NCBI GenBank assembly: GCA_000004695.1
Contig: CM000154.2
Coordinates: 4,416,001 to 4,480,000 of the forward strand
DNA: 64,000 bases
Source: Dictyostelium discoideum
Lineage: Eukaryota
Direction: 5' to 3'
Shown piece by piece: positions 3,333 through 17,549 of the stretch (position 1 is the stretch's first letter; each line of letters starts with the position of its first letter). Under the pieces are notes generated by a model. The model saw only the letters and a list, made by a program, of their open reading frames with translations. It did not search any database and was not told where the DNA came from. The position numbers and the translations under genes were made by a program.

Positions 3333-3989
3333 TTATTGTGATAATTGTTTTGGTGGAGATGAATCAATTACAGATTCCAAATAATGATTTATAATTGGTT
3401 GTGATTCTAAAAATAGAGAATGAAGCATATCTTTTTTAAATGGTACAATCATTTCATTATTATTTATAAATTCTTCAAAACCAAACCATTTACATTCTTC
3501 AAATTCCGGTTCCTCTTCAACATTTAAATTGACAGTTTTAATTAAATCATTTGGTAAGTAAAATAGATACCAATGTATCATTTGTCCAATATGACCACCA
3601 CTTCTAGATTTTGGTGAATCTTCATAAATGTAAGATAATGGATTTTGAAGCTTTGAAACGTATTTTAATGTATCAATTGATGGCTCTAATCCAACTTCCT
3701 CTTTAATCTCTCTTTGTACTGCTACATAATAATCTTCATTCTTTTCAACTTCTACTCCACCTTGTGGAAATTGCCACTAAAATAAAATAAAAATAAAATA
3801 AAAAAAAAAAAAAAACAAATTAGAAATAATAATAATAATAAAAATGAATAAATAAATATTTATAAATGAAGATATAATTACTTTTCCAACAGCAGTTTTC
3901 TTTTTAGATGATCTTTTACAAATTAAAACTTGATTGTTTTGGTTAAAGATTAATGCTCCAACACAACTTCTATATTTTGCTTCATTCAT
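3333..3989 (-). CDS. Nudix hydrolase (MutT/Ap4A-hydrolase-like), 2 exons
   Basis: Exon 1 is 3882-3989 (MNEAKYRSCVGALIFNQNNQVLICKRSSKKKTAVGK, donor GTAATT). Exon 2 is 3333-3776, entered via acceptor ...attttag. Exon 2 begins WQFPQGGVEVEKNEDYYVAVQREIKEEVGL, which is the Nudix box GX5EX7REUXEEXGU. The frame is continuous to the stop at 3333-3335. About 183 aa. Confidence 0.8.
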
Positions 3990-4622: not shown

Positions 4623-5496
4623 TTTTTTTTTTTGATTATTATCTTTTAAAGTAAAATATTAATTTATTATTATTTAATAAAAAAAAAAAATGATCTGAAT
4701 CTAAATCAACAATGAAACAATTTTTAAGAAAAAAAAATTAAAAAAAAAATAAAAAAATAAAAACCAATTTATTTATTTAATGATTGTGATACAACTAATC
4801 ACATTCCACCTTAAATTGAGGTTTTGTAAATTTAGTTTATATTTTTCCAAAAAAAAAAAAAAAAAAAAAAAAAAATAAATCCCTCAAAAAAAAAAAAATA
4901 TCTGGATTTTAGTTTTTTTATTTTATAATAACACTTTTTTATTTCCAAGTTTTTCTTTATTTTTCAAAAAACCTTTAATTTTTTAAAAGACTCGTCAAAT
5001 CAAATAGATGCTTATTTTTTTTTTTATTTTTTTTTTTTTTTTTGCTATTTGTTTAACTTTAATGATCATAATTTGAAAAAAAAAATAATAAAAAAAAAAT
5101 AATAAAAAAAAAGAAAAATATTTTGTTTGTTGCTTTAAAGCATTTCAAAAGTGAATAAAAAAATCAAATCAAATCAAATTAAAAAAAAAAAAAAAAAAAA
5201 TTATACCCGTGCTACACGGGGTGCCTATTTAAAAAATAAGAAAAATGAAAAAAAAAAAAAAAAAAAATCTGGTGGCTTTGTATTTTTTAAAAGATTATTA
5301 TCATTATCATTATTGTTTTTCACACTAAATTTTCTGAAACACTTAAAAAAAATAGTAAAAATAAAAAATAAAAAAAAAAATTAAAAATAACACAAATCAT
5401 TGAACAGAGTGGTAAATAATATTTAATGTTCGAAAAATGTAATTTATGTTGAGTGGTTAATTGTTTTTTTTATTTTAATTTTAATTTTTTATTTAT

Positions 5497-7041
5497 TTAT
5501 TTATTTCTAATTTTTCTTTTAATTGAAACTCTTTCTAAATTATAATTTGAACATTCAAAAGCTTGAAAAGGTGGAACGAAATGAATATAAGTTCCAATTG
5601 TTATACAAGCAATAATCGGACCAACCATATATGGCCAAATTTTATTAAATATTCCAGTTACAATTGCCGGACATAAACATCTAGCCATATTAAATCCAAA
5701 TATATAATTTGGTGAAATACCAGATGATGCAATAATTGAGAAACCTAATGTAATTGATATGAAAAATGCACCAACTGCTCCACCAATTATTGGAGTTTGT
5801 CTTCTATCCAGGGCAGTTCCAAAAGCAATATACAAATTTAACATTGAAAACATGAATTCCATACCAAGTGCTCCACCACTACTTATATCACCACCATATG
5901 TACACATACCTAAATTTGTCCTTTTCATAACTTCGAATGGAATTATACCTCTAATAATCGCTGATCCAATTATACCACCTGTAATTTGAAAAATAATATA
6001 AAATAAACATCTTATAACTTTTTTTTTATTACACCCCACTCTATTAATATAAAATTATAATTATAATAAATTATAATAAAATTAAATTAAATTAAATTAA
6101 ATACATACAGGATGTATAACCTGAAAAGAAAGTTGCAATTGTAATTGACGGATTTAAATGACCACCACTAACAGGGGCACAAGTTAAAATTAATAAGTAT
6201 AATAATGGTACATGTAAAACAGCAGAAGTTGCAGGCACTCTATAATTTGGTACAGAATTTACCAATGTTTCACCATTAAAATCATTAAGATTTGATATAT
6301 ATGAATAATCAAAATAATTTACAGACGAAATGAAAATACCAATTGACATAAATAAAAATAAAGCACTACCAATCATTTCTGTAACTGATGCTTTGTATAA
6401 TTTACTATCGAATAATTCATTGTATCCTGATATTCTTATAATTTCATTTATTAATTTATCTTTAAATTTTAATTTATTTATTTCACTTTTTTCATCAATT
6501 GATGATTGTTTTGATTTTAAATCTTTTTCACTATTCTCATAATCATCGTCATCATAATTATAATATTCATCATCTTTAAATGACTTTGGAGATATTAAAG
6601 TACTACTTGTATTATTATTATTATTATTGACACTATTACCACTACTACCACTTCTATCACTTCTACTATTATTACTAATATTTGATTCAATATCATAGTT
6701 TATGGGTATTTCTAAATCTATTTCATCATTTTCAATACCATCATTATGATGTTGATTTTGTTGATGTTGATGATGTTCAAGATGTTGATGATGTTGATGG
6801 TGTGGGTGGTGTGGATGATGTTGATGGTGTTGATGGTGTTGACTTTGATAAATATGGTGTATTGTATGTCTTTTTCCATAGTCATTATATTCATCATTAT
6901 TATTAGAACCATACCTTATTAAGCTAGCATACTTATAAAATGGAGCTGCTAATTCATATCTAATTTTTTTTCTTCTCCTTATACTTATATTACTACTATT
7001 ACTATTTCTACTACTACTATTACATGTACTTGGACTTTTTA

Positions 7042-7110
<69 letters not shown>

Positions 7111-7147
7111 TACTACTAATACTATTACTATTACTATAACTACTCAT
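5497..7147 (-). CDS. Major intrinsic protein / aquaporin-like channel with a ~250-aa low-complexity N-terminal extension, 2 exons
   Basis: Exon 1 is 7147 down to about 6109. It starts MSSYSNSN, has a 24-residue poly-N, then an (HHQHH)n His-rich tract, then TM helices, and ends ...SGGHLNPSITIATFFSGYTS. Donor is GTATGT at 6108 (alternative GTATTT at 6104). Exon 2 runs from about 6017 (alternative acceptor at 6040) to the stop at 5497-5499. Exon 2 contains VIRCLFYIIFQITGGIIGSAII and GFNMARCL. The two MIP signature boxes read NPS and NMA instead of NPA/NPA. The overall six-TM topology is recognisable. The exact exon-2 acceptor is ambiguous; both options are in phase. Confidence 0.7.
7043..7105 (-). 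repeat. Coding (AAT)n tract encoding poly-Asn inside the aquaporin-like gene
   Basis: Plus-strand (tta)n translates to the N24 run on the minus strand. Confidence 0.9.
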
Positions 7148-8631: not shown

Positions 8632-10532
8632 ATGACACAAACTCAATTTCAAGTAGTAATTTTAGCAACTGATAAAGCATCAGGAAATTCTAAATTAGAA
8701 CCAATTGATGCTACAATCCCACATTCATTATTACCAATTGCAAATAGACCTTTAATTTCATATCAATTAGAATTCTTAGAGAAAGCTGGTTTTGAAAGTA
8801 ATAATCACATCATTAATAATAACAATAATAACAATAATAATTGTTTTGTTATTGATATCAATACCAATCATCTGATAATAATCATCATAATTATTATTTC
8901 TTACTAATTTTTTTTTTAAAAAAATATTTATATTTATATATAGCTAAAAGTGAACCAGTCATTATTGTAGTTAATGAAACATCTCAAGAAAAGATTAAAC
9001 AATATGTATCAGAAATTTATAAAGGGAAAATTGAAGTTGAATTCTTTGTTTTAAAGGATCAATTAGCAACTTGTGAAATTTTATATAGAATTAGAGATAA
9101 AATTAGAGTAATTATTTATATATAATTTTCATCCACAACAACAACAACAATAATAATAATAATAATAATAAAAATAATAATTAAAAAAAAAAAATTGAGA
9201 AAAAGTTTGGAAAAATAATAAAATAATAGTAATAATATTTCAAATACTAATTAATATATATATGTATATTTATCAATCAATAAATCCAATAAATCAATAT
9301 TATTATTATTAATAAATCAACAATAAAATTTAATTTTCAATTATATATGTAAATATAAAGTTGGAATATTTTATGGTATTAAATGCAAATTTAGTTTTAG
9401 AGGATACATTCATTAGACAAATGGCAGATTTACATAGAAAAGAAGAAAGTTCACTTACAGTTTTATTAAAACCACCAACTCCAAAAGTTGAACAAAAAGG
9501 TAAAGGTGCAACTGAAACATCAACTAAACAAGATAAACTCTTTACTGATTATATCGCTTTAGAAGAGAAATCTCAAAAAATAGTAATGATGGAACCTGCA
9601 ACTGAAGTTGAAGAAGATTTAAACTTTAATAAATCATTATTAAAATAGTAATATTTATAATTTAATTATATCTATATTATATATATAATGAATATATAAC
9701 AAATAACTAACCAATTAAATTAATTTATTAGTTTCCCAAATGTAACGATTTATACAAATTTACAAGATACTCAACTTTATATCTTTTCAAGATGGGTATT
9801 AGATTTAATTATTGAAGATCAAAAAGAAAAGTATCCATTATTCTTTGATATTAAAAAACATTTAATTCCATATTTATTATCATGTCAAATTCCAAATATT
9901 AAACGTAAGAGAGCATTACCAGCAAGTGCATTCAATCAAAATCAAACACTCTCTCAAACTATGTCATCAACTACCTCACCTTTTGATCAATTCTCTGAAT
10001 TAAATGCTCAAAAGAATAAAACAATTAAATGTTTTGCTCATTTATTAAAAAAAGAAGGTTATTGTATGAATGTAAATACAATTAAAAATTATCAACAAAT
10101 TAATAGAGATGTAAGTTTTAAACAATTTTATATTTAATATATTTATATTTATTATTTTAATTAATAAATATCATATTTATTTATTTATTTATTTATTTAA
10201 AAAAGATTGCAAAAGGTGATTTACAATATCTACCAAATGAACCAAAATCAGAAAAGAACTTTTTTATCGATCCAACAGCAAATGTTACAATTACTCAAGT
10301 TGGTCCACAATGTGTAATTGGTACAAGTACAACATTGGGTGCTAAATGTAGTGTTAAATTCTCAATCATTGGTAAACATTGTAAAATTGGTGATGGTGTT
10401 CGTATTGAAAATTCAATCATTATGGATCATGTAATCATTGAAGATAGATGTGTTATTAATAGTTCAATCATTTGTAATGATGTTTATATTAAATCTGGTT
10501 CTTCAACTGTTGGTCAATATTTAACAAAATAA
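8632..10532 (+). CDS. eif2b3: Translation initiation factor eIF2B gamma-like subunit (NTP-transferase N-domain plus left-handed beta-helix hexapeptide repeats), 5 exons
   Basis: Exons are 8632-8797, 8944-9107, 9361-9647, 9732-10110 and 10206-10532. Donors are GTAATA, GTAATT, GTAATA and GTAAGT. Acceptors are ...atatag, ...ataaag, ...ttattag and ...aaaaag. Phases are checked and consistent, giving 440 aa. The N-terminus (QVVILATDKASGNSKLEPID...LLPIANRPLISYQLEFLEKAGFE) is a nucleotidyl-transferase fold. The C-terminus (IGKHCKIGDGVRIENSIIMDHVIIEDRCVINSSII) is a hexapeptide-repeat LbH domain. The symbol is inferred from architecture and size, not from a database hit. Confidence 0.75.
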
Positions 10533-10906: not shown

Positions 10907-13500
10907 TTACATTTTATCCCAAGACCAAACTTTAAGATTACTAGCTAATGAACCAGTAAATAATTGATTTTGATTTCTCCAAAGACAAAGAATTGAAGAT
11001 CTTGTATTGAGAGAAGCTAAATTTTCGTATTTATCATGACTGAAAACTTGTAACCAATCACCGCTACCTGCAAAGATACCTTGATTAGTGACGTGAAGAG
11101 TTTCAACACGATCCTTACATTTGATGGTATTGACGCAACGTGTAGTTTTAAGATCCCAAATTCTAATAGTTTCATCATGAGAACCACTGTAGAGCATATT
11201 GTTATGAGCGTAAAGTGTTTTGACCCAACCTTCATGACCTTGGAAATTGGTGAGAATAGTACCAGTAGCTAAATTCCAAACGTAAATTTGTTGATCATTT
11301 GAGCCAGAGAATAAGAGATTACCCATTGCGCAAACCGATTTAATGGCACGAGTATGACCTGATAAAGTTTTAACGCATTCATATGATCTCATATCCCAAA
11401 CTTTAACGGTTTTATCGTTGCAACCAGTGTACAATAGATTGTCTTGAATGAAAATGGTATTGACTTCGTTGGATTCTTTGATCTCTTTGATGGTTTGTTG
11501 AGTGTTGATATCCCATTCCTTAACCAAAGAGTCTGCACCTGCTGTCAAAATATTTTGATCGAAACCTGGACGTTTAATGACTGCTCTAATCGATTTACCA
11601 TGTGCTTTAATGTTGGTAACATGTTTCAATTCAACAGCATCCCAAACACCGATTTGGCCATCATTTGAACCACTATATAATCTTAAACTATCACCAGTGA
11701 TACATTCTGATTGTAAACCTCTAACTGTATCGATATTCTTTATTGATGTTAAATCCCATTTTTCAAATTCTGAACGATCTGGTGTTTGTTCCATTGATGA
11801 TGTTGATGTCGATTCTGGTGTTGGAACATTCGATGATGATGTTGACGATGCTGATGCTGCTGCTGATGATGGTTGAATTGGTTGTTGTGGTGGTGGTGAA
11901 TTTCTAGAAACTTGAATTGAAATTGGTGCTGCATTTGTAGTTGATGATGATGAAGATGATGAAGATGATGATGATGATGAAGATACGCTACTACTATTAC
12001 TGTTAACACTACTACTATTGCTACTATTATTTATATTATCATTATTATTATTATTATTATTACTATTATCATTGTTACTGCTGATGCTACTATTATTATT
12101 ATTTATATTATCTTGTTCTAATTTTACATTACTATTTTCTTTTGGTGGTGATACAGGTGATTTATTTACTACATTTGATTGTGAAGGTGTTTTTACAATT
12201 TGAGGTACAGGTTTTGAAGTTGGTGAAGAAGGTGATTGCTGTTTATGTAAATTATTACCAGATGGTTGTTTAACCAATGGTGGAGAAGGTTTACTTTTTT
12301 GTTGTTGTTGAGCTCTAATTCTTTCCAATTGTTCTTGAAGCATTTTCTCTTCATCATCTAATGAGATTGGTTGTTGAGCACCACCACCATTTCTAAAGTA
12401 ATTCATATCGTAGTTATTCTTTGGACCACTACCATTACCATTCAACCCGATTGCATCATGGAAATCCATTAATTGTACGACGGGTAATGTACCTCTTAGG
12501 AGGGCTTTCTTTGATTGATTGATTGGTTTCAACTTTAAAAAGTCACAAACTGGATTACACTTGTGTGTTTGAAGGAATTTGTGGAAACCCGTCTCGCCCA
12601 AATTACCCTCGCCAAAGCCCTCGCCTGATTTCGTATGAATTTGAGGATCAGTGTAGAAATCGTTGACACCTTGGATATCAACGATCAACAATTCATGATT
12701 GGAGAGTTCGTATGAGAAATGAGAGAATGATTGTGGTGTATTTCTAGCATCACTACTAACGTAACCACTGTTGTTGTTATGTTTCTTGTAATCTCCCTCA
12801 ATGAATGGTTCACCACCACAAACTGGATAAGGTGGTGGATGATCAATCAATTCGTAAACGTATGATGGTAAGAATGTAATTGGTTTTGGTGGTTTCGCTT
12901 CATTGAATTTCTCTGCCCATTTAGCACAAAATGTTTGCATCAATACATCTGTAAAGTATGAATCTCTTGTCGTCTTTTTATTGGTTGAAAATTTACCAAC
13001 TAATCCTTGATCTGGTTGACTCCAATCCTTTAATTTATGTGCTGTTCTACAACTACCCTTTGCAAATGGAGTCTTCTCAATTGAAACACATACAATACTA
13101 TGTGTCCATTTTGGTTTTAAATCATCACCAATTGTTAATTCCCATCTTTTTTTTTTAATAATAAAAAATAATTATTAGTAAATTTAATAATAAAAATTGA
13201 AAAAAAATTGAAAAAAAAAAAAATTAAAAAAAATTAAAACCATACTTTATTGCTCTTTCACATTTTGTACCTGCAATAACATCGGCAACTGGGAATTTTT
13301 GATTTAATAATGCCAAAGCTGTCATTTGAAAAATAAATAAATAATAATAATAAAATTTTAGTTTTATTAGTAATTTGTTCAACTTTTTTTAAAAAAAAAA
13401 AAAAATAGGTTTCTATGTAGTATAAAAAATATAAAATAAAATAATATTTATTTAAAATTGATAATTTACCTGCTGCTGCTCCTGTTTTTTTTTCTTCCAT
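10907..13500 (-). CDS. mhkC: Alpha-kinase + WD40-repeat protein (myosin heavy chain kinase B/C family), 3 exons, 780 aa
   Basis: Exons are 13470-13500 (MEEKKTGAAAG, donor GTAAAT), 13246-13318 (ALALLNQKFPVADVIAGTKCERAI, donor GTATGG) and 10907-13145. Exon 3 begins WELTIGDDLKPKWTHSIVCVSIEK and continues through the alpha-kinase C-lobe (GGEPFIEGDYKKH...LLIVDIQGV...YTDPQIH...FGEGNLG). After an S/N/Q/P-rich linker come seven WD40 repeats (GHTRAI..., WD motifs). The symbol is suggested only because the architecture and the 780-aa length match what I recall for MHCK-C. It is not verified. Confidence 0.75.
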
Positions 13501-16333: not shown

Positions 16334-17549
16334 TTATTTATTAAATTTTTCAAAAAGAATTTTATCAACTTGTTTATAAAGTGGATTTTTCTCTAAAAGA
16401 TCTTCATATTCAGTACCTTTAATATATGTTGAATGTTGATCTAATAATACCAATTCTCTACAACCAAAAGTACGACCTTGAGCAATGAAACCTTCAAAAG
16501 GAAGAAACCAAATTTTTGGATCCGATTCCATTACAGAGACAACGATGGTTTTGGTGGGTGACAAGGGGATGAATCTCCAAGCATGGAAGAATATATCAGG
16601 ATGAGAGAATTGTTTTGGTAATGGTGGAAGTTCGTAATCGGATTGTCTATTATTTGCACCATTCACTGCAACGATTACACTACCATCTGGAAGAGTGTAA
16701 GTTAATGTCCAGCAATAGGCAGCACGATTAAATAGAATGAATCTACTTAACACCGAAATGATACTAACTAGTTTGGTTCCTTTATAATCATCCAATCTTG
16801 TTATATGTTGGTACCACTTCCATGTGTTAAAAAGTTGAAGTTCTTCCACTCTTAATAACAAGTTTTTAATTGGCTTATCGATTACTTTTATAAATTTTCT
16901 TGCTTTTAATTGTCTACCATTATGTTTATAGGAATAGGTCACACTTTTATCATCACCAGACAACTCTTTTTCATTAACCCATGCATCTTCACTAAAGAAT
17001 GCATTCATTAAATCTTTTAATTGAATTGATTCTTTCATTAATACTAATATTTCTTTATTTTCATTTATATAATCATTAATTGTTATATAATATAAATCTA
17101 AAAAAAAAAAAAAAAAAAAATTAATTAATAATTAAATATTTATATAAATAAATTAATATAAATAAAATATATGTATTTTTTTTTTAAAAAAAATAATCAC
17201 AATTCTTTTTATAATTACTTTTATTTGATTTTAATTTTTCAATAGTTGTTAAAATTTTAAGAAATTGAACTAATGCTTCATAATGATTTCCAGATAATTT
17301 CAATAAAAGACAATTATCAATTTGACTTTTAAATTTTGATGGATCTGGTATTTCTTTAATTTCTTCTAAAAACATTTCCCAACTATATCCATTATTTAAT
17401 TTACTCCATCTATTTAAAACATTTGTTGGAAATTCAATTGAACCACATGAATTGTTATTATTACTATTAATTTTATTTTTTAAAAATGCATAAGCAGCTC
17501 CTGCACCAATTAAAGATGCAGTAATAGTAGATAAATTTAAATATTCCAT
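16334..17549 (-). CDS. Hypothetical N-terminally membrane-anchored protein, 2 exons (about 345 aa). The C-terminal ~230 aa may be a lipid-binding START/SRPBCC-like fold, but this is weak
   Basis: Exon 1 is 17219-17549 (MEYLNLSTITASLIGAGAAYAFL... TM segment ...ILTTIEKLKSNK, donor GTAATT at 17218). Exon 2 starts at about 17043 and runs to the stop at 16334. Three in-phase acceptors exist at 17045, 17054 and 17099; I prefer 17045 or 17054 because the 17039-17097 stretch has intron-like composition. Domain assignment is tentative. Confidence 0.55.

Follow-up and report, generated by a model that had tools for sequence, protein, structure and literature searches.

A 64,000-nucleotide stretch of the Dictyostelium discoideum genome (contig CM000154.2 of assembly GCA_000004695.1, positions 4,416,001 to 4,480,000; hereafter the window) carries at its positions 5497-7147, on the minus strand, a single two-exon gene that probably encodes a 519-amino-acid (aa) channel of the XIP-like (X-intrinsic-protein-like, MDC3) branch of the MIP family, represents the copy at the ancestral locus and conducts small neutral solutes. 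The gene is genuine, intact and selectively maintained, an uncharacterised member of a known family. An original prediction, made from the sequence alone, had drawn attention to two altered signature boxes and a His-rich cytosolic N-terminus. Both look striking in isolation; the first is actually a trait of the whole clade and the second a coding repeat of a kind typical of this genome. The most promising lead lies elsewhere, in a short clade-wide motif within the N-terminal extension.

Gene model, paralog and ancestral locus

The gene lies in a region of 21% GC with long homopolymer runs, and it appears as two minus-strand open reading frame (ORF) pieces, 7147-6092 (351 aa) and 6039-5497 (180 aa). 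The interval first proposed for it proved to run exactly from the ATG at 7147 to the end of the stop codon at 5497, and the two-exon structure proposed with it is supported by an intron at 6018-6108 that has a match in both the paralog and the Dictyostelium purpureum ortholog. The start codon stands in an AAAATG context, and there is no in-frame start upstream. Splice enumeration yielded 14 possible in-frame GT...AG combinations. We chose the donor at 6108 and the acceptor at 6018 because the homologous proteins and their introns agree with this junction. The donor, T^GTATGT, has an identical context in the paralog and in the D. purpureum ortholog, and the acceptor, AAAG^TTATAAGAT, ends at 6018. 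Splicing joins ...ACATCCT to TTATAAGATG, and the resulting junction, GYTS^F, matches ...GYTSFIRCIIY... in the paralog and ...GYTSFTRCVFY... in D. purpureum. Each of these two genes has its single intron at the same site and in the same phase (L003 3740-3861 for the paralog and L004 3320-3377 for D. purpureum), with nearly the same flanking bases. Moreover, the spacing between the first signature box and the conserved Gln of the third transmembrane helix (TM3) becomes the canonical 22 residues after splicing, while read-through models add 7 residues. Two contigs derived from the SRA, from another strain and about 99% identical to the window, differ within the intron by a 5-nt indel corresponding to one ATTAA unit, which makes the interval 6018-6108 incompatible with coding. 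The exon junction is thus settled in silico, and cDNA would have the final word.

The donor at 6108 can also be combined with an acceptor at 6039, giving a protein of 526 aa with the junction GYTS-LGCNKKKV; this model was rejected, as were four further in-frame combinations, on comparison with the homologous genes and the positions of their introns. The strings LGCNKKKV and ...CMYLI are intronic read-through and lie outside the spliced protein. Exact look-ups of six candidate protein models gave no match in the protein collection.

Homology searches were repeated with the channel domain only, since the low-complexity N-terminus swamped the full-length query. The closest D. discoideum protein is the cluster of DDB_G0274209 (Q8SSP2, XP_644262), a single-copy gene in strain AX4. 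As this best match is only 65-67% identical, the window gene is a paralog of DDB_G0274209. In D. purpureum, the locus has the order NTP_transferase-MIP-NUDIX, and the window shows the same relative order and orientation. The paralog lies on chromosome 2 next to a fucosidase gene, in a non-syntenic context. The synteny with the single D. purpureum gene indicates that the window gene is the ancestral-locus copy and that DDB_G0274209 has been relocated. Homologs of either paralog were not returned for D. firmibasis, D. citrinum and D. dimigraforme, though their proteomes are in the collection.

Channel domain, signature boxes and predicted filter

Assignment to the aquaporin family, as first proposed, is upheld by a Pfam MIP (PF00230) match of 96.9 bits against a cut-off of 25 (E = 1.9e-27). 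This match begins at residue 248, in agreement with the roughly 250-residue N-terminal extension described earlier. Solved aquaporins in the PDB are recovered both with the single sequence (AQP2, E = 2.7e-16) and with a profile (AQP4, E = 3e-60). The hourglass fold of six transmembrane helices and two re-entrant half-helices is seen in the AlphaFold2 model of the 67%-identical paralog, with a predicted template modelling score (pTM) of 0.76 and a predicted local distance difference test score (pLDDT) above 90 in the channel. In Foldseek comparisons, this model matches AQP2, AQP1, PIP2 and TIP2;1 with TM-scores of about 0.82-0.85.

Canonical boxes are not obligatory for the MIP family, as illustrated by PfAQP, AQP11/12, the SIPs and the XIPs. 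Both boxes of the window protein were correctly reported as altered: HLNPSIT and GFNMARC are present at N332 and N456, so that NPS and NMA stand in place of Asn-Pro-Ala. Both Asn residues are retained and are invariant in close homologs, and these features are not due to chance, as homologs keep equivalent positions. The further suggestion that altered boxes mark an unorthodox or gated aquaporin does not hold, given that the first box is non-canonical in all 37 relatives examined (NPA occurs in none of them) and that the paralog was described in these terms in 2008-2009. A profile search of 1.84 billion representatives returned 27 relatives below 1e-30. Among the 37 close members, the nearest have a second box of the form N-[I/M]-[A/S/T]-RC, including two more with NMA or NMS, and the more distant ones have NPA. 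When XIP signature definitions are applied (PMC2386804), the window protein shows replacement of the first-box Ala, for which V, L, I, S or C are expected, a Cys directly after the second box (NMAR-C460, as in NPARC) and a Cys in loop C (LGM-C385, as in LGGC; LGxC is found in most relatives). It lacks the canonical second NPA of plant XIPs. His occupies the H2 position of the aromatic/arginine (ar/R) filter in 24 of the 37 relatives. Judging from these sequence comparisons, the altered boxes are clade traits of the XIP-like (MDC3) branch and are not peculiar to this gene. The profile search also detected a 710-aa XIP-like MIP (P0033) with an SIN-RC second box and an apparently missing last helix, followed by about 350 residues resembling an endonuclease/exonuclease/phosphatase-type domain, which may be a real fusion or a merged gene model.

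The branch has a short published history in Dictyostelium. In 2008, XM_639170 was the only non-plant sequence clustering with the new X-intrinsic proteins; it was called 'a very divergent sequence', and its NPA boxes as well as its ar/R filter were unlike those of other XIPs (PMC2386804). From the constant offset between RefSeq XP and XM numbers, we infer that XM_639170 corresponds to XP_644262, the paralog. This protein was named DdXIP1;1 in 2009, and its modelled filter was H-I-F-R (PMC2789079). The available part of a 2024 survey places slime-mould sequences in an XIP/MDC3 deep clade and counts two XIP-MDC3 genes in D. discoideum and one each in D. purpureum, Cavenderia, Heterostelium and Tieghemostelium, with AQPA and AQPC in another clade (PMC11316224). 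As far as that part of the survey goes, the window gene has probably been counted already. Its presumed clustering with named plant XIPs rests on the published trees for the paralog, together with the 67% identity between the two proteins.

Alignment to MIP profiles and inspection of the ar/R residues, which the original prediction had proposed as a check, led us to a predicted filter of His312/Ser445/Phe453/Arg459, in which the H5 residue is uncertain; profile and pairwise alignments agree on a one-residue deletion in loop E. The Arg at LE2, R459, is invariant in close homologs. Among the Froger positions, P2-P3 are read from the sequence as Cys460-Ala464, an AQP-like pair, and P4-P5, the pair in the sixth transmembrane helix, as Tyr-Met, which is of mixed type. 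The protein does not resemble an aquaglyceroporin (GLP; GlpF, AQP3/7/9/10), a group in which P2-P3 are Asp-[Lys/Arg] and P4-P5 are Pro-[aliphatic]. Its alignment scores with GlpF and AQP7 are much lower than those with AQP4 and AQP1, and only the small H5 residue and the Phe at LE1 recall that group.

Could the protein then be an orthodox water-selective aquaporin despite its altered boxes? Its best matches in sequence and structure are orthodox aquaporins (AQP4, AQP2 and AQP1), the PIPs and TIP2;1, not GlpF or AQP7, and the Cys-Ala pair at P2-P3 would be consistent with such a function. However, the orthodox water-selective filter is Phe-His-(Cys/Ala/Thr)-Arg, and the window protein lacks its H5 His and has at LE1 a Phe as in GlpF. 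Moreover, the plant and fungal XIPs characterised to date show high solute permeability and variable water permeability (PMC12300952). We therefore regard water selectivity as unlikely.

The channel domain is under purifying selection. The three sequences compared lie at nearly equal distances from one another: identity over the domain is 66.8% between the window protein and its paralog, 64.0% between the window protein and D. purpureum, and 61.7% between the paralog and D. purpureum. Lineage-specific substitutions are least numerous in the window copy, with 27 compared with 34 and 41 in the other two sequences. The Nei-Gojobori ratio of non-synonymous to synonymous substitution rates (dN/dS) for the domain is 0.34 for window-paralog, 0.25 for window-D. 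purpureum and 0.17 for paralog-D. purpureum. In a set of 34 more distant relatives, 46 columns show at least 75% conservation; the window protein departs from the consensus at 4 of them, a number that its relatives match. Two of these four columns fall where the N-terminal region aligns poorly and probably reflect misalignment. The few lineage-specific changes, the low domain dN/dS and the preserved conserved columns indicate that the copy is not degenerating.

These data bear on the idea of a MIP that is closed or does not conduct, or of a copy on its way to losing its function, kept for a role other than transport. The second-box Pro has been lost and the filter contains the bulky residues His, Phe and Arg; moreover, D. 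discoideum AqpB in its wild-type form shows no permeability in oocytes and becomes permeable only when one of its intracellular loops is made shorter (PMC13332306). In addition, the two strains differ over about 1.6 kb by four non-synonymous changes and one synonymous change, plus an indel in the His tract, and the paralog could cover the function. Nevertheless, the ORF, the splice sites and both boxes are intact in the two strains, three of the four non-synonymous differences fall outside the channel domain, and both Asn residues, the Arg and both signature Cys are kept. Together with the constraint on the domain described above, this makes a non-conducting or decaying copy an unlikely explanation.

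We therefore favour a conducting channel, since both Asn residues and the Arg are invariant in close homologs and PfAQP is functional with altered boxes. The protein would form the usual MIP tetramer with one pore per subunit, in which N332, N456 and Arg459 would still provide the central and outer constrictions. The replacements of Ala by Ser and of Pro by Met would alter only helix-capping residues, as in functional MIPs with altered boxes. The predicted filter and the Cys-Ala pair at P2-P3 would favour small neutral solutes (of the class of H2O2, glycerol, urea or ammonia) and a modest permeability to water, in line with reports on plant and fungal XIPs. A disulfide of the kind suggested for XIPs may link C385 in loop C to C460. 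On its cytosolic side, the N-terminus would be mostly disordered and of low complexity, with the segment at aa 69-79, after a basic cluster, probably packing on the cytosolic face and having a role in gating or trafficking.

Several points weigh against a solute-conducting XIP-like channel. The H5 residue is alignment-dependent, being Ser in our alignment and Ile in the 2009 model of the paralog (PMC2789079), and the structural statements come from the AlphaFold2 model of a 67%-identical paralog. The second-box Pro, lost here, is kept in plant XIPs, and those who first defined the XIPs expressed doubt that XIP function extends to the Dictyostelium protein (PMC2386804). That the second catalogued D. 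discoideum XIP-MDC3 gene is the window gene is most likely, because in the available part of the survey AQPA and AQPC belong to another clade and because DDB_G0274209 is single-copy; the identification is indirect. The excess of non-synonymous over synonymous strain changes gives no sign of strong constraint, though the changes are too few to interpret. The full-length product of the AX4 gene is absent from a collection of 15 billion proteins, in which neighbouring AX4 genes are present. In the literature, we found no reports on transport, localisation or expression for the gene or for DDB_G0274209, and nothing relevant on DDB_G0274209 or the neighbouring gene identifiers.

The N-terminal extension

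The possibility that the N-terminal 250 residues form a separate upstream gene was raised with the original prediction; they might also reflect an artefact of annotation or ORF calling. Their low complexity would fit either view, as would the D. purpureum model, annotated without an N-terminus. However, one uninterrupted ORF runs from the ATG into the first two transmembrane helices (TM1-TM2), the annotated paralog protein has the same layout, and the D. purpureum gene has an in-frame extension that shares a conserved motif, which precedes the MIP domain in 32 of 37 relatives. On this sequence evidence the extension belongs to the same gene, and a separate origin is scarcely credible. Ahead of the partial D. 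purpureum model DICPUDRAFT_9720 (275 aa), about 245 further residues can be read in frame, starting from an ATG (L004 2275-3000, GL871501.1), and the added segment contains poly-N, a short His run, HNENHHHHH, and the conserved motif. The public D. purpureum gene model is thus probably truncated at its 5' end.

The extension is mostly of low complexity. The poly-Asn run, first given as N24, comprises 21 uninterrupted residues. The His/Gln tract is indeed present, though it is 32 residues long rather than 35, and the string quoted for it had 31. Both the poly-N and the (QHH)n tracts are coding microsatellites of a kind typical of the D. discoideum genome. The His tract is one QHH unit shorter, in frame, in another strain, and it has no counterpart in the paralog. 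The HNENHHHHH run of D. purpureum is on the opposite side of the conserved motif and is therefore not positionally homologous. His makes up 2.6% of the family N-termini, compared with 2.3% in the rest of these proteins, and 1.4% of the window N-terminus outside the tract; this background-level content rules out His enrichment as a family trait. Over 136 alignable codons, the dN/dS of the extension is about 1.1; apart from one clade-wide motif, the extension evolves neutrally, driven largely by its repeats.

These observations leave little room for the proposal that the (QHH)n tract acts as a cytosolic sensor of metals or pH that regulates the channel. The idea has analogies in the His-based gating of plant PIPs and in hisactophilin, the pH-sensing His-rich protein of Dictyostelium. 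A tract with 18 His in 32 residues binds Ni/Zn and titrates near pH 6-7, it lies about 25 residues from the conserved motif, and the syntenic D. purpureum ortholog also has its short His run. Yet the tract is a 9-nt tandem repeat whose length varies from strain to strain and which the paralog lacks, the D. purpureum run is misplaced relative to the motif, and the family-wide His content and the dN/dS of the aligned N-terminus show nothing beyond background and neutrality. A His-rich tract conserved in orthologs or paralogs, as expected of a functional sensor, is not found. The 18 His would almost certainly bind metal in vitro, but such binding says nothing about function. Sensitivity to metal or pH conferred by the tract, as the original prediction suggested, is thus unsupported, and we consider a sensor improbable.

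The conserved part of the extension is instead a motif of the form [FY]-x-G-[GSA]-[LIF]-[VIL]-[RQK]-Y, upstream of TM1 and the MIP domain, the Tyr of which is present in 33 of 35 aligned sequences. It is found in the paralog as well as in the D. purpureum extension. In the AlphaFold2 model of the paralog, a 10-residue block containing the motif has a pLDDT of 84 between flanks below 50 and is followed by a helix; it is the only confidently modelled part of the N-terminal tail. This contrast in confidence suggests that the motif packs against the channel. The motif is not mentioned in the XIP literature consulted (PMC2386804, PMC12300952). One possibility is a so far undescribed element, shared by the whole XIP/MDC3 clade, that serves autoregulation (by plugging the pore) or trafficking, and to which, in the window copy, the neighbouring expandable (QHH)n tract might add a response to pH or metal, though we offer this combined idea as a speculative one with a low chance of being right.

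The branch of the XIP-like MIPs is ancient and may go back to the last eukaryotic common ancestor. D. discoideum, a haploid model organism in which genes are easily knocked out, has exactly two XIP-like genes, both uncharacterised. The physiological role of XIPs has been called 'largely speculative' (PMC12300952). A functional study is now enabled by the 519-aa gene model, by the ancestral-locus status of the gene and by the recognition of the motif, rather than the His tract, as the conserved N-terminal part. If the motif were a clade-wide regulator modulated by the QHH tract, the gene would be a tractable model for the control of XIPs.

Genomic surroundings and comparison with known systems

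Table 1. Positions in the window of the MIP gene, its parts and the syntenic flanking genes
Feature	Position	Strand	Evidence or remark
Whole gene (coding sequence with single intron), 519-aa XIP-like MIP	5497..7147	minus	ORFs, splice enumeration, Pfam MIP, ORF kept in ~99%-identical contigs from another strain
Exon 1 (aa 1-346 and first base of codon 347): N-terminal extension, TM1, TM2, loop B with NPS box, start of TM3	6109..7147	minus	AAAATG start context; donor context
Poly-Asn run, 21 residues (aa 15-35), (AAT)n microsatellite	7043..7105	minus	
Conserved motif PFYKYASLIRY (aa 69-79), after basic cluster RRRKK	6911..6943	minus	
His/Gln tract, 32 aa (aa 103-134), 18 His; imperfect 9-nt (QHH)n tandem repeat	6746..6841	minus	Tandem Repeats Finder (TRF), period 9, ~11 copies
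MIP channel domain (aa 248-485; span includes intron)	5602..6406	minus	Pfam PF00230; PDB aquaporin matches; dN/dS
His312, predicted ar/R H2; 20 residues before first-box Asn; counterpart of AQP1 F56	6212..6214	minus	Ungapped alignment
First box NPS (HLNPSIT), aa 332-334, N332	6146..6154	minus	
Intron, 91 nt, phase 1, 11% GC, with ATTAA repeat (TRF)	6018..6108	minus	Intron site and phase match in homologs
Exon 2 (rest of codon 347 to aa 519): TM3-TM6, loop C, loop E with NMA box; stop TAA 5497-5499	5497..6017	minus	
Loop C LGMC, aa 382-385; counterpart of XIP 'LGGC' cysteine motif	5902..5913	minus	
Ser445 (predicted ar/R H5; codon 5722-5724) and Phe453 (predicted ar/R LE1; codon 5698-5700)	5698..5724	minus	phmmer and profile alignments to AQP2, AQP4
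Second box and XIP signature NMARC (GFNMARC), aa 456-460; N456; R459, predicted ar/R LE2; C460, XIP cysteine	5677..5691	minus	
NUDIX gene	~3333-3989		Synteny with D. purpureum
NTP_transferase gene	~8632-10457		Synteny with D. purpureum

The gene content of the window suggests no operon-like link between the neighbouring genes and the MIP gene. About 280 nt downstream of the MIP stop codon, at ~5207-5222, an isolated GC-rich hairpin (CCCGTG-CTA-CACGGG) stands in an extremely AT-rich spacer and corresponds to no Rfam family or tRNA; scanning the whole window for Rfam families and tRNAs likewise gave no matches. On the minus strand, positions 10907-12943 encode the C-terminal part of an alpha-kinase, then a long Ser/Asn-rich linker and a WD40 propeller, which is the architecture of myosin heavy chain kinase. 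A single-exon stretch of a neighbouring gene, at 16334-17038, is 100% identical to the START-like DDB_G0290695 of D. discoideum AX4; identity is 98% with other strains of the species and 85% with D. firmibasis. The window therefore belongs to AX4 chromosome 5, and an origin in another species, which the 65% identity of the best D. discoideum match to the MIP gene had suggested, is rejected. Four tandem minus-strand ORFs of 2100-2460 aa occupy 22672-63907 and encode type I polyketide synthases of the highly reducing kind (AT-DH-MT-ER-KR-ACP-reductase). The near identity of their N-terminal sequences suggests recent duplication or gene conversion, and their KS domains must lie in separate upstream exons. 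A P450 fragment is also present in the window.

Among known systems, the closest to the window gene is its paralog DDB_G0274209/DdXIP1;1 (XP_644262/XM_639170; Danielson & Johanson 2008, PMC2386804; Gupta & Sankararamakrishnan 2009, PMC2789079), with 66.8% domain identity, the same intron site and phase and the same NPS first box. Like the window protein, the paralog has lost the second-box Pro (NIA, compared with NMA in the window protein), has the RC and LGMC cysteines, and combines His at H2, Phe at LE1 and Arg at LE2 with the N-terminal motif. It differs in its location on chromosome 2, in its shorter N-terminus of about 140 aa without a His tract, and in the H5 residue, which in our own alignment is Gly rather than Ser. 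The D. purpureum gene (DICPUDRAFT_9720; XP_003294465, partial) is syntenic with the window gene and resembles it in its 64% identity, its intron and its long N-terminus with poly-N and the motif. In contrast, its boxes are NSS and NIT, its short His run is on the other side of the motif, and its published model lacks the N-terminus.

Plant and fungal XIPs, placed in MDC3 in the available part of the 2024 survey (PMC11316224), share with the window protein the Cys after the second box (NPARC) and the Cys in loop C (LGGC). They also share a replaced first-box Ala and a variable ar/R filter, and the paralog clusters with them in published trees. Unlike the window protein, with its NMA box and predicted H-S-F-R filter, plant XIPs have a canonical second NPA and a hydrophobic filter (V/I-T-A/V-R).

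PfAQP of Plasmodium falciparum is an aquaglyceroporin with NLA and NPS boxes and a W/G/F/R filter, and it is fully functional; it is also cited in PMC2789079. As in the window protein, neither of its boxes is canonical, one having lost its Pro and the other carrying Ser instead of Ala; however, it belongs to a different MIP branch, and the box changes occur in the opposite order.

In yeast Fps1 and Aqy1, a short conserved element in a long cytosolic N-terminus controls the pore. An Fps-like N-terminal regulatory region has also been noted in the literature (PMC12300952). The window protein has in common with Fps1 and Aqy1 a short conserved N-terminal element, with no sequence similarity between them, and the conservation of the motif across the clade, together with its confident modelling in the paralog, suggests that it may play a comparable regulatory role.

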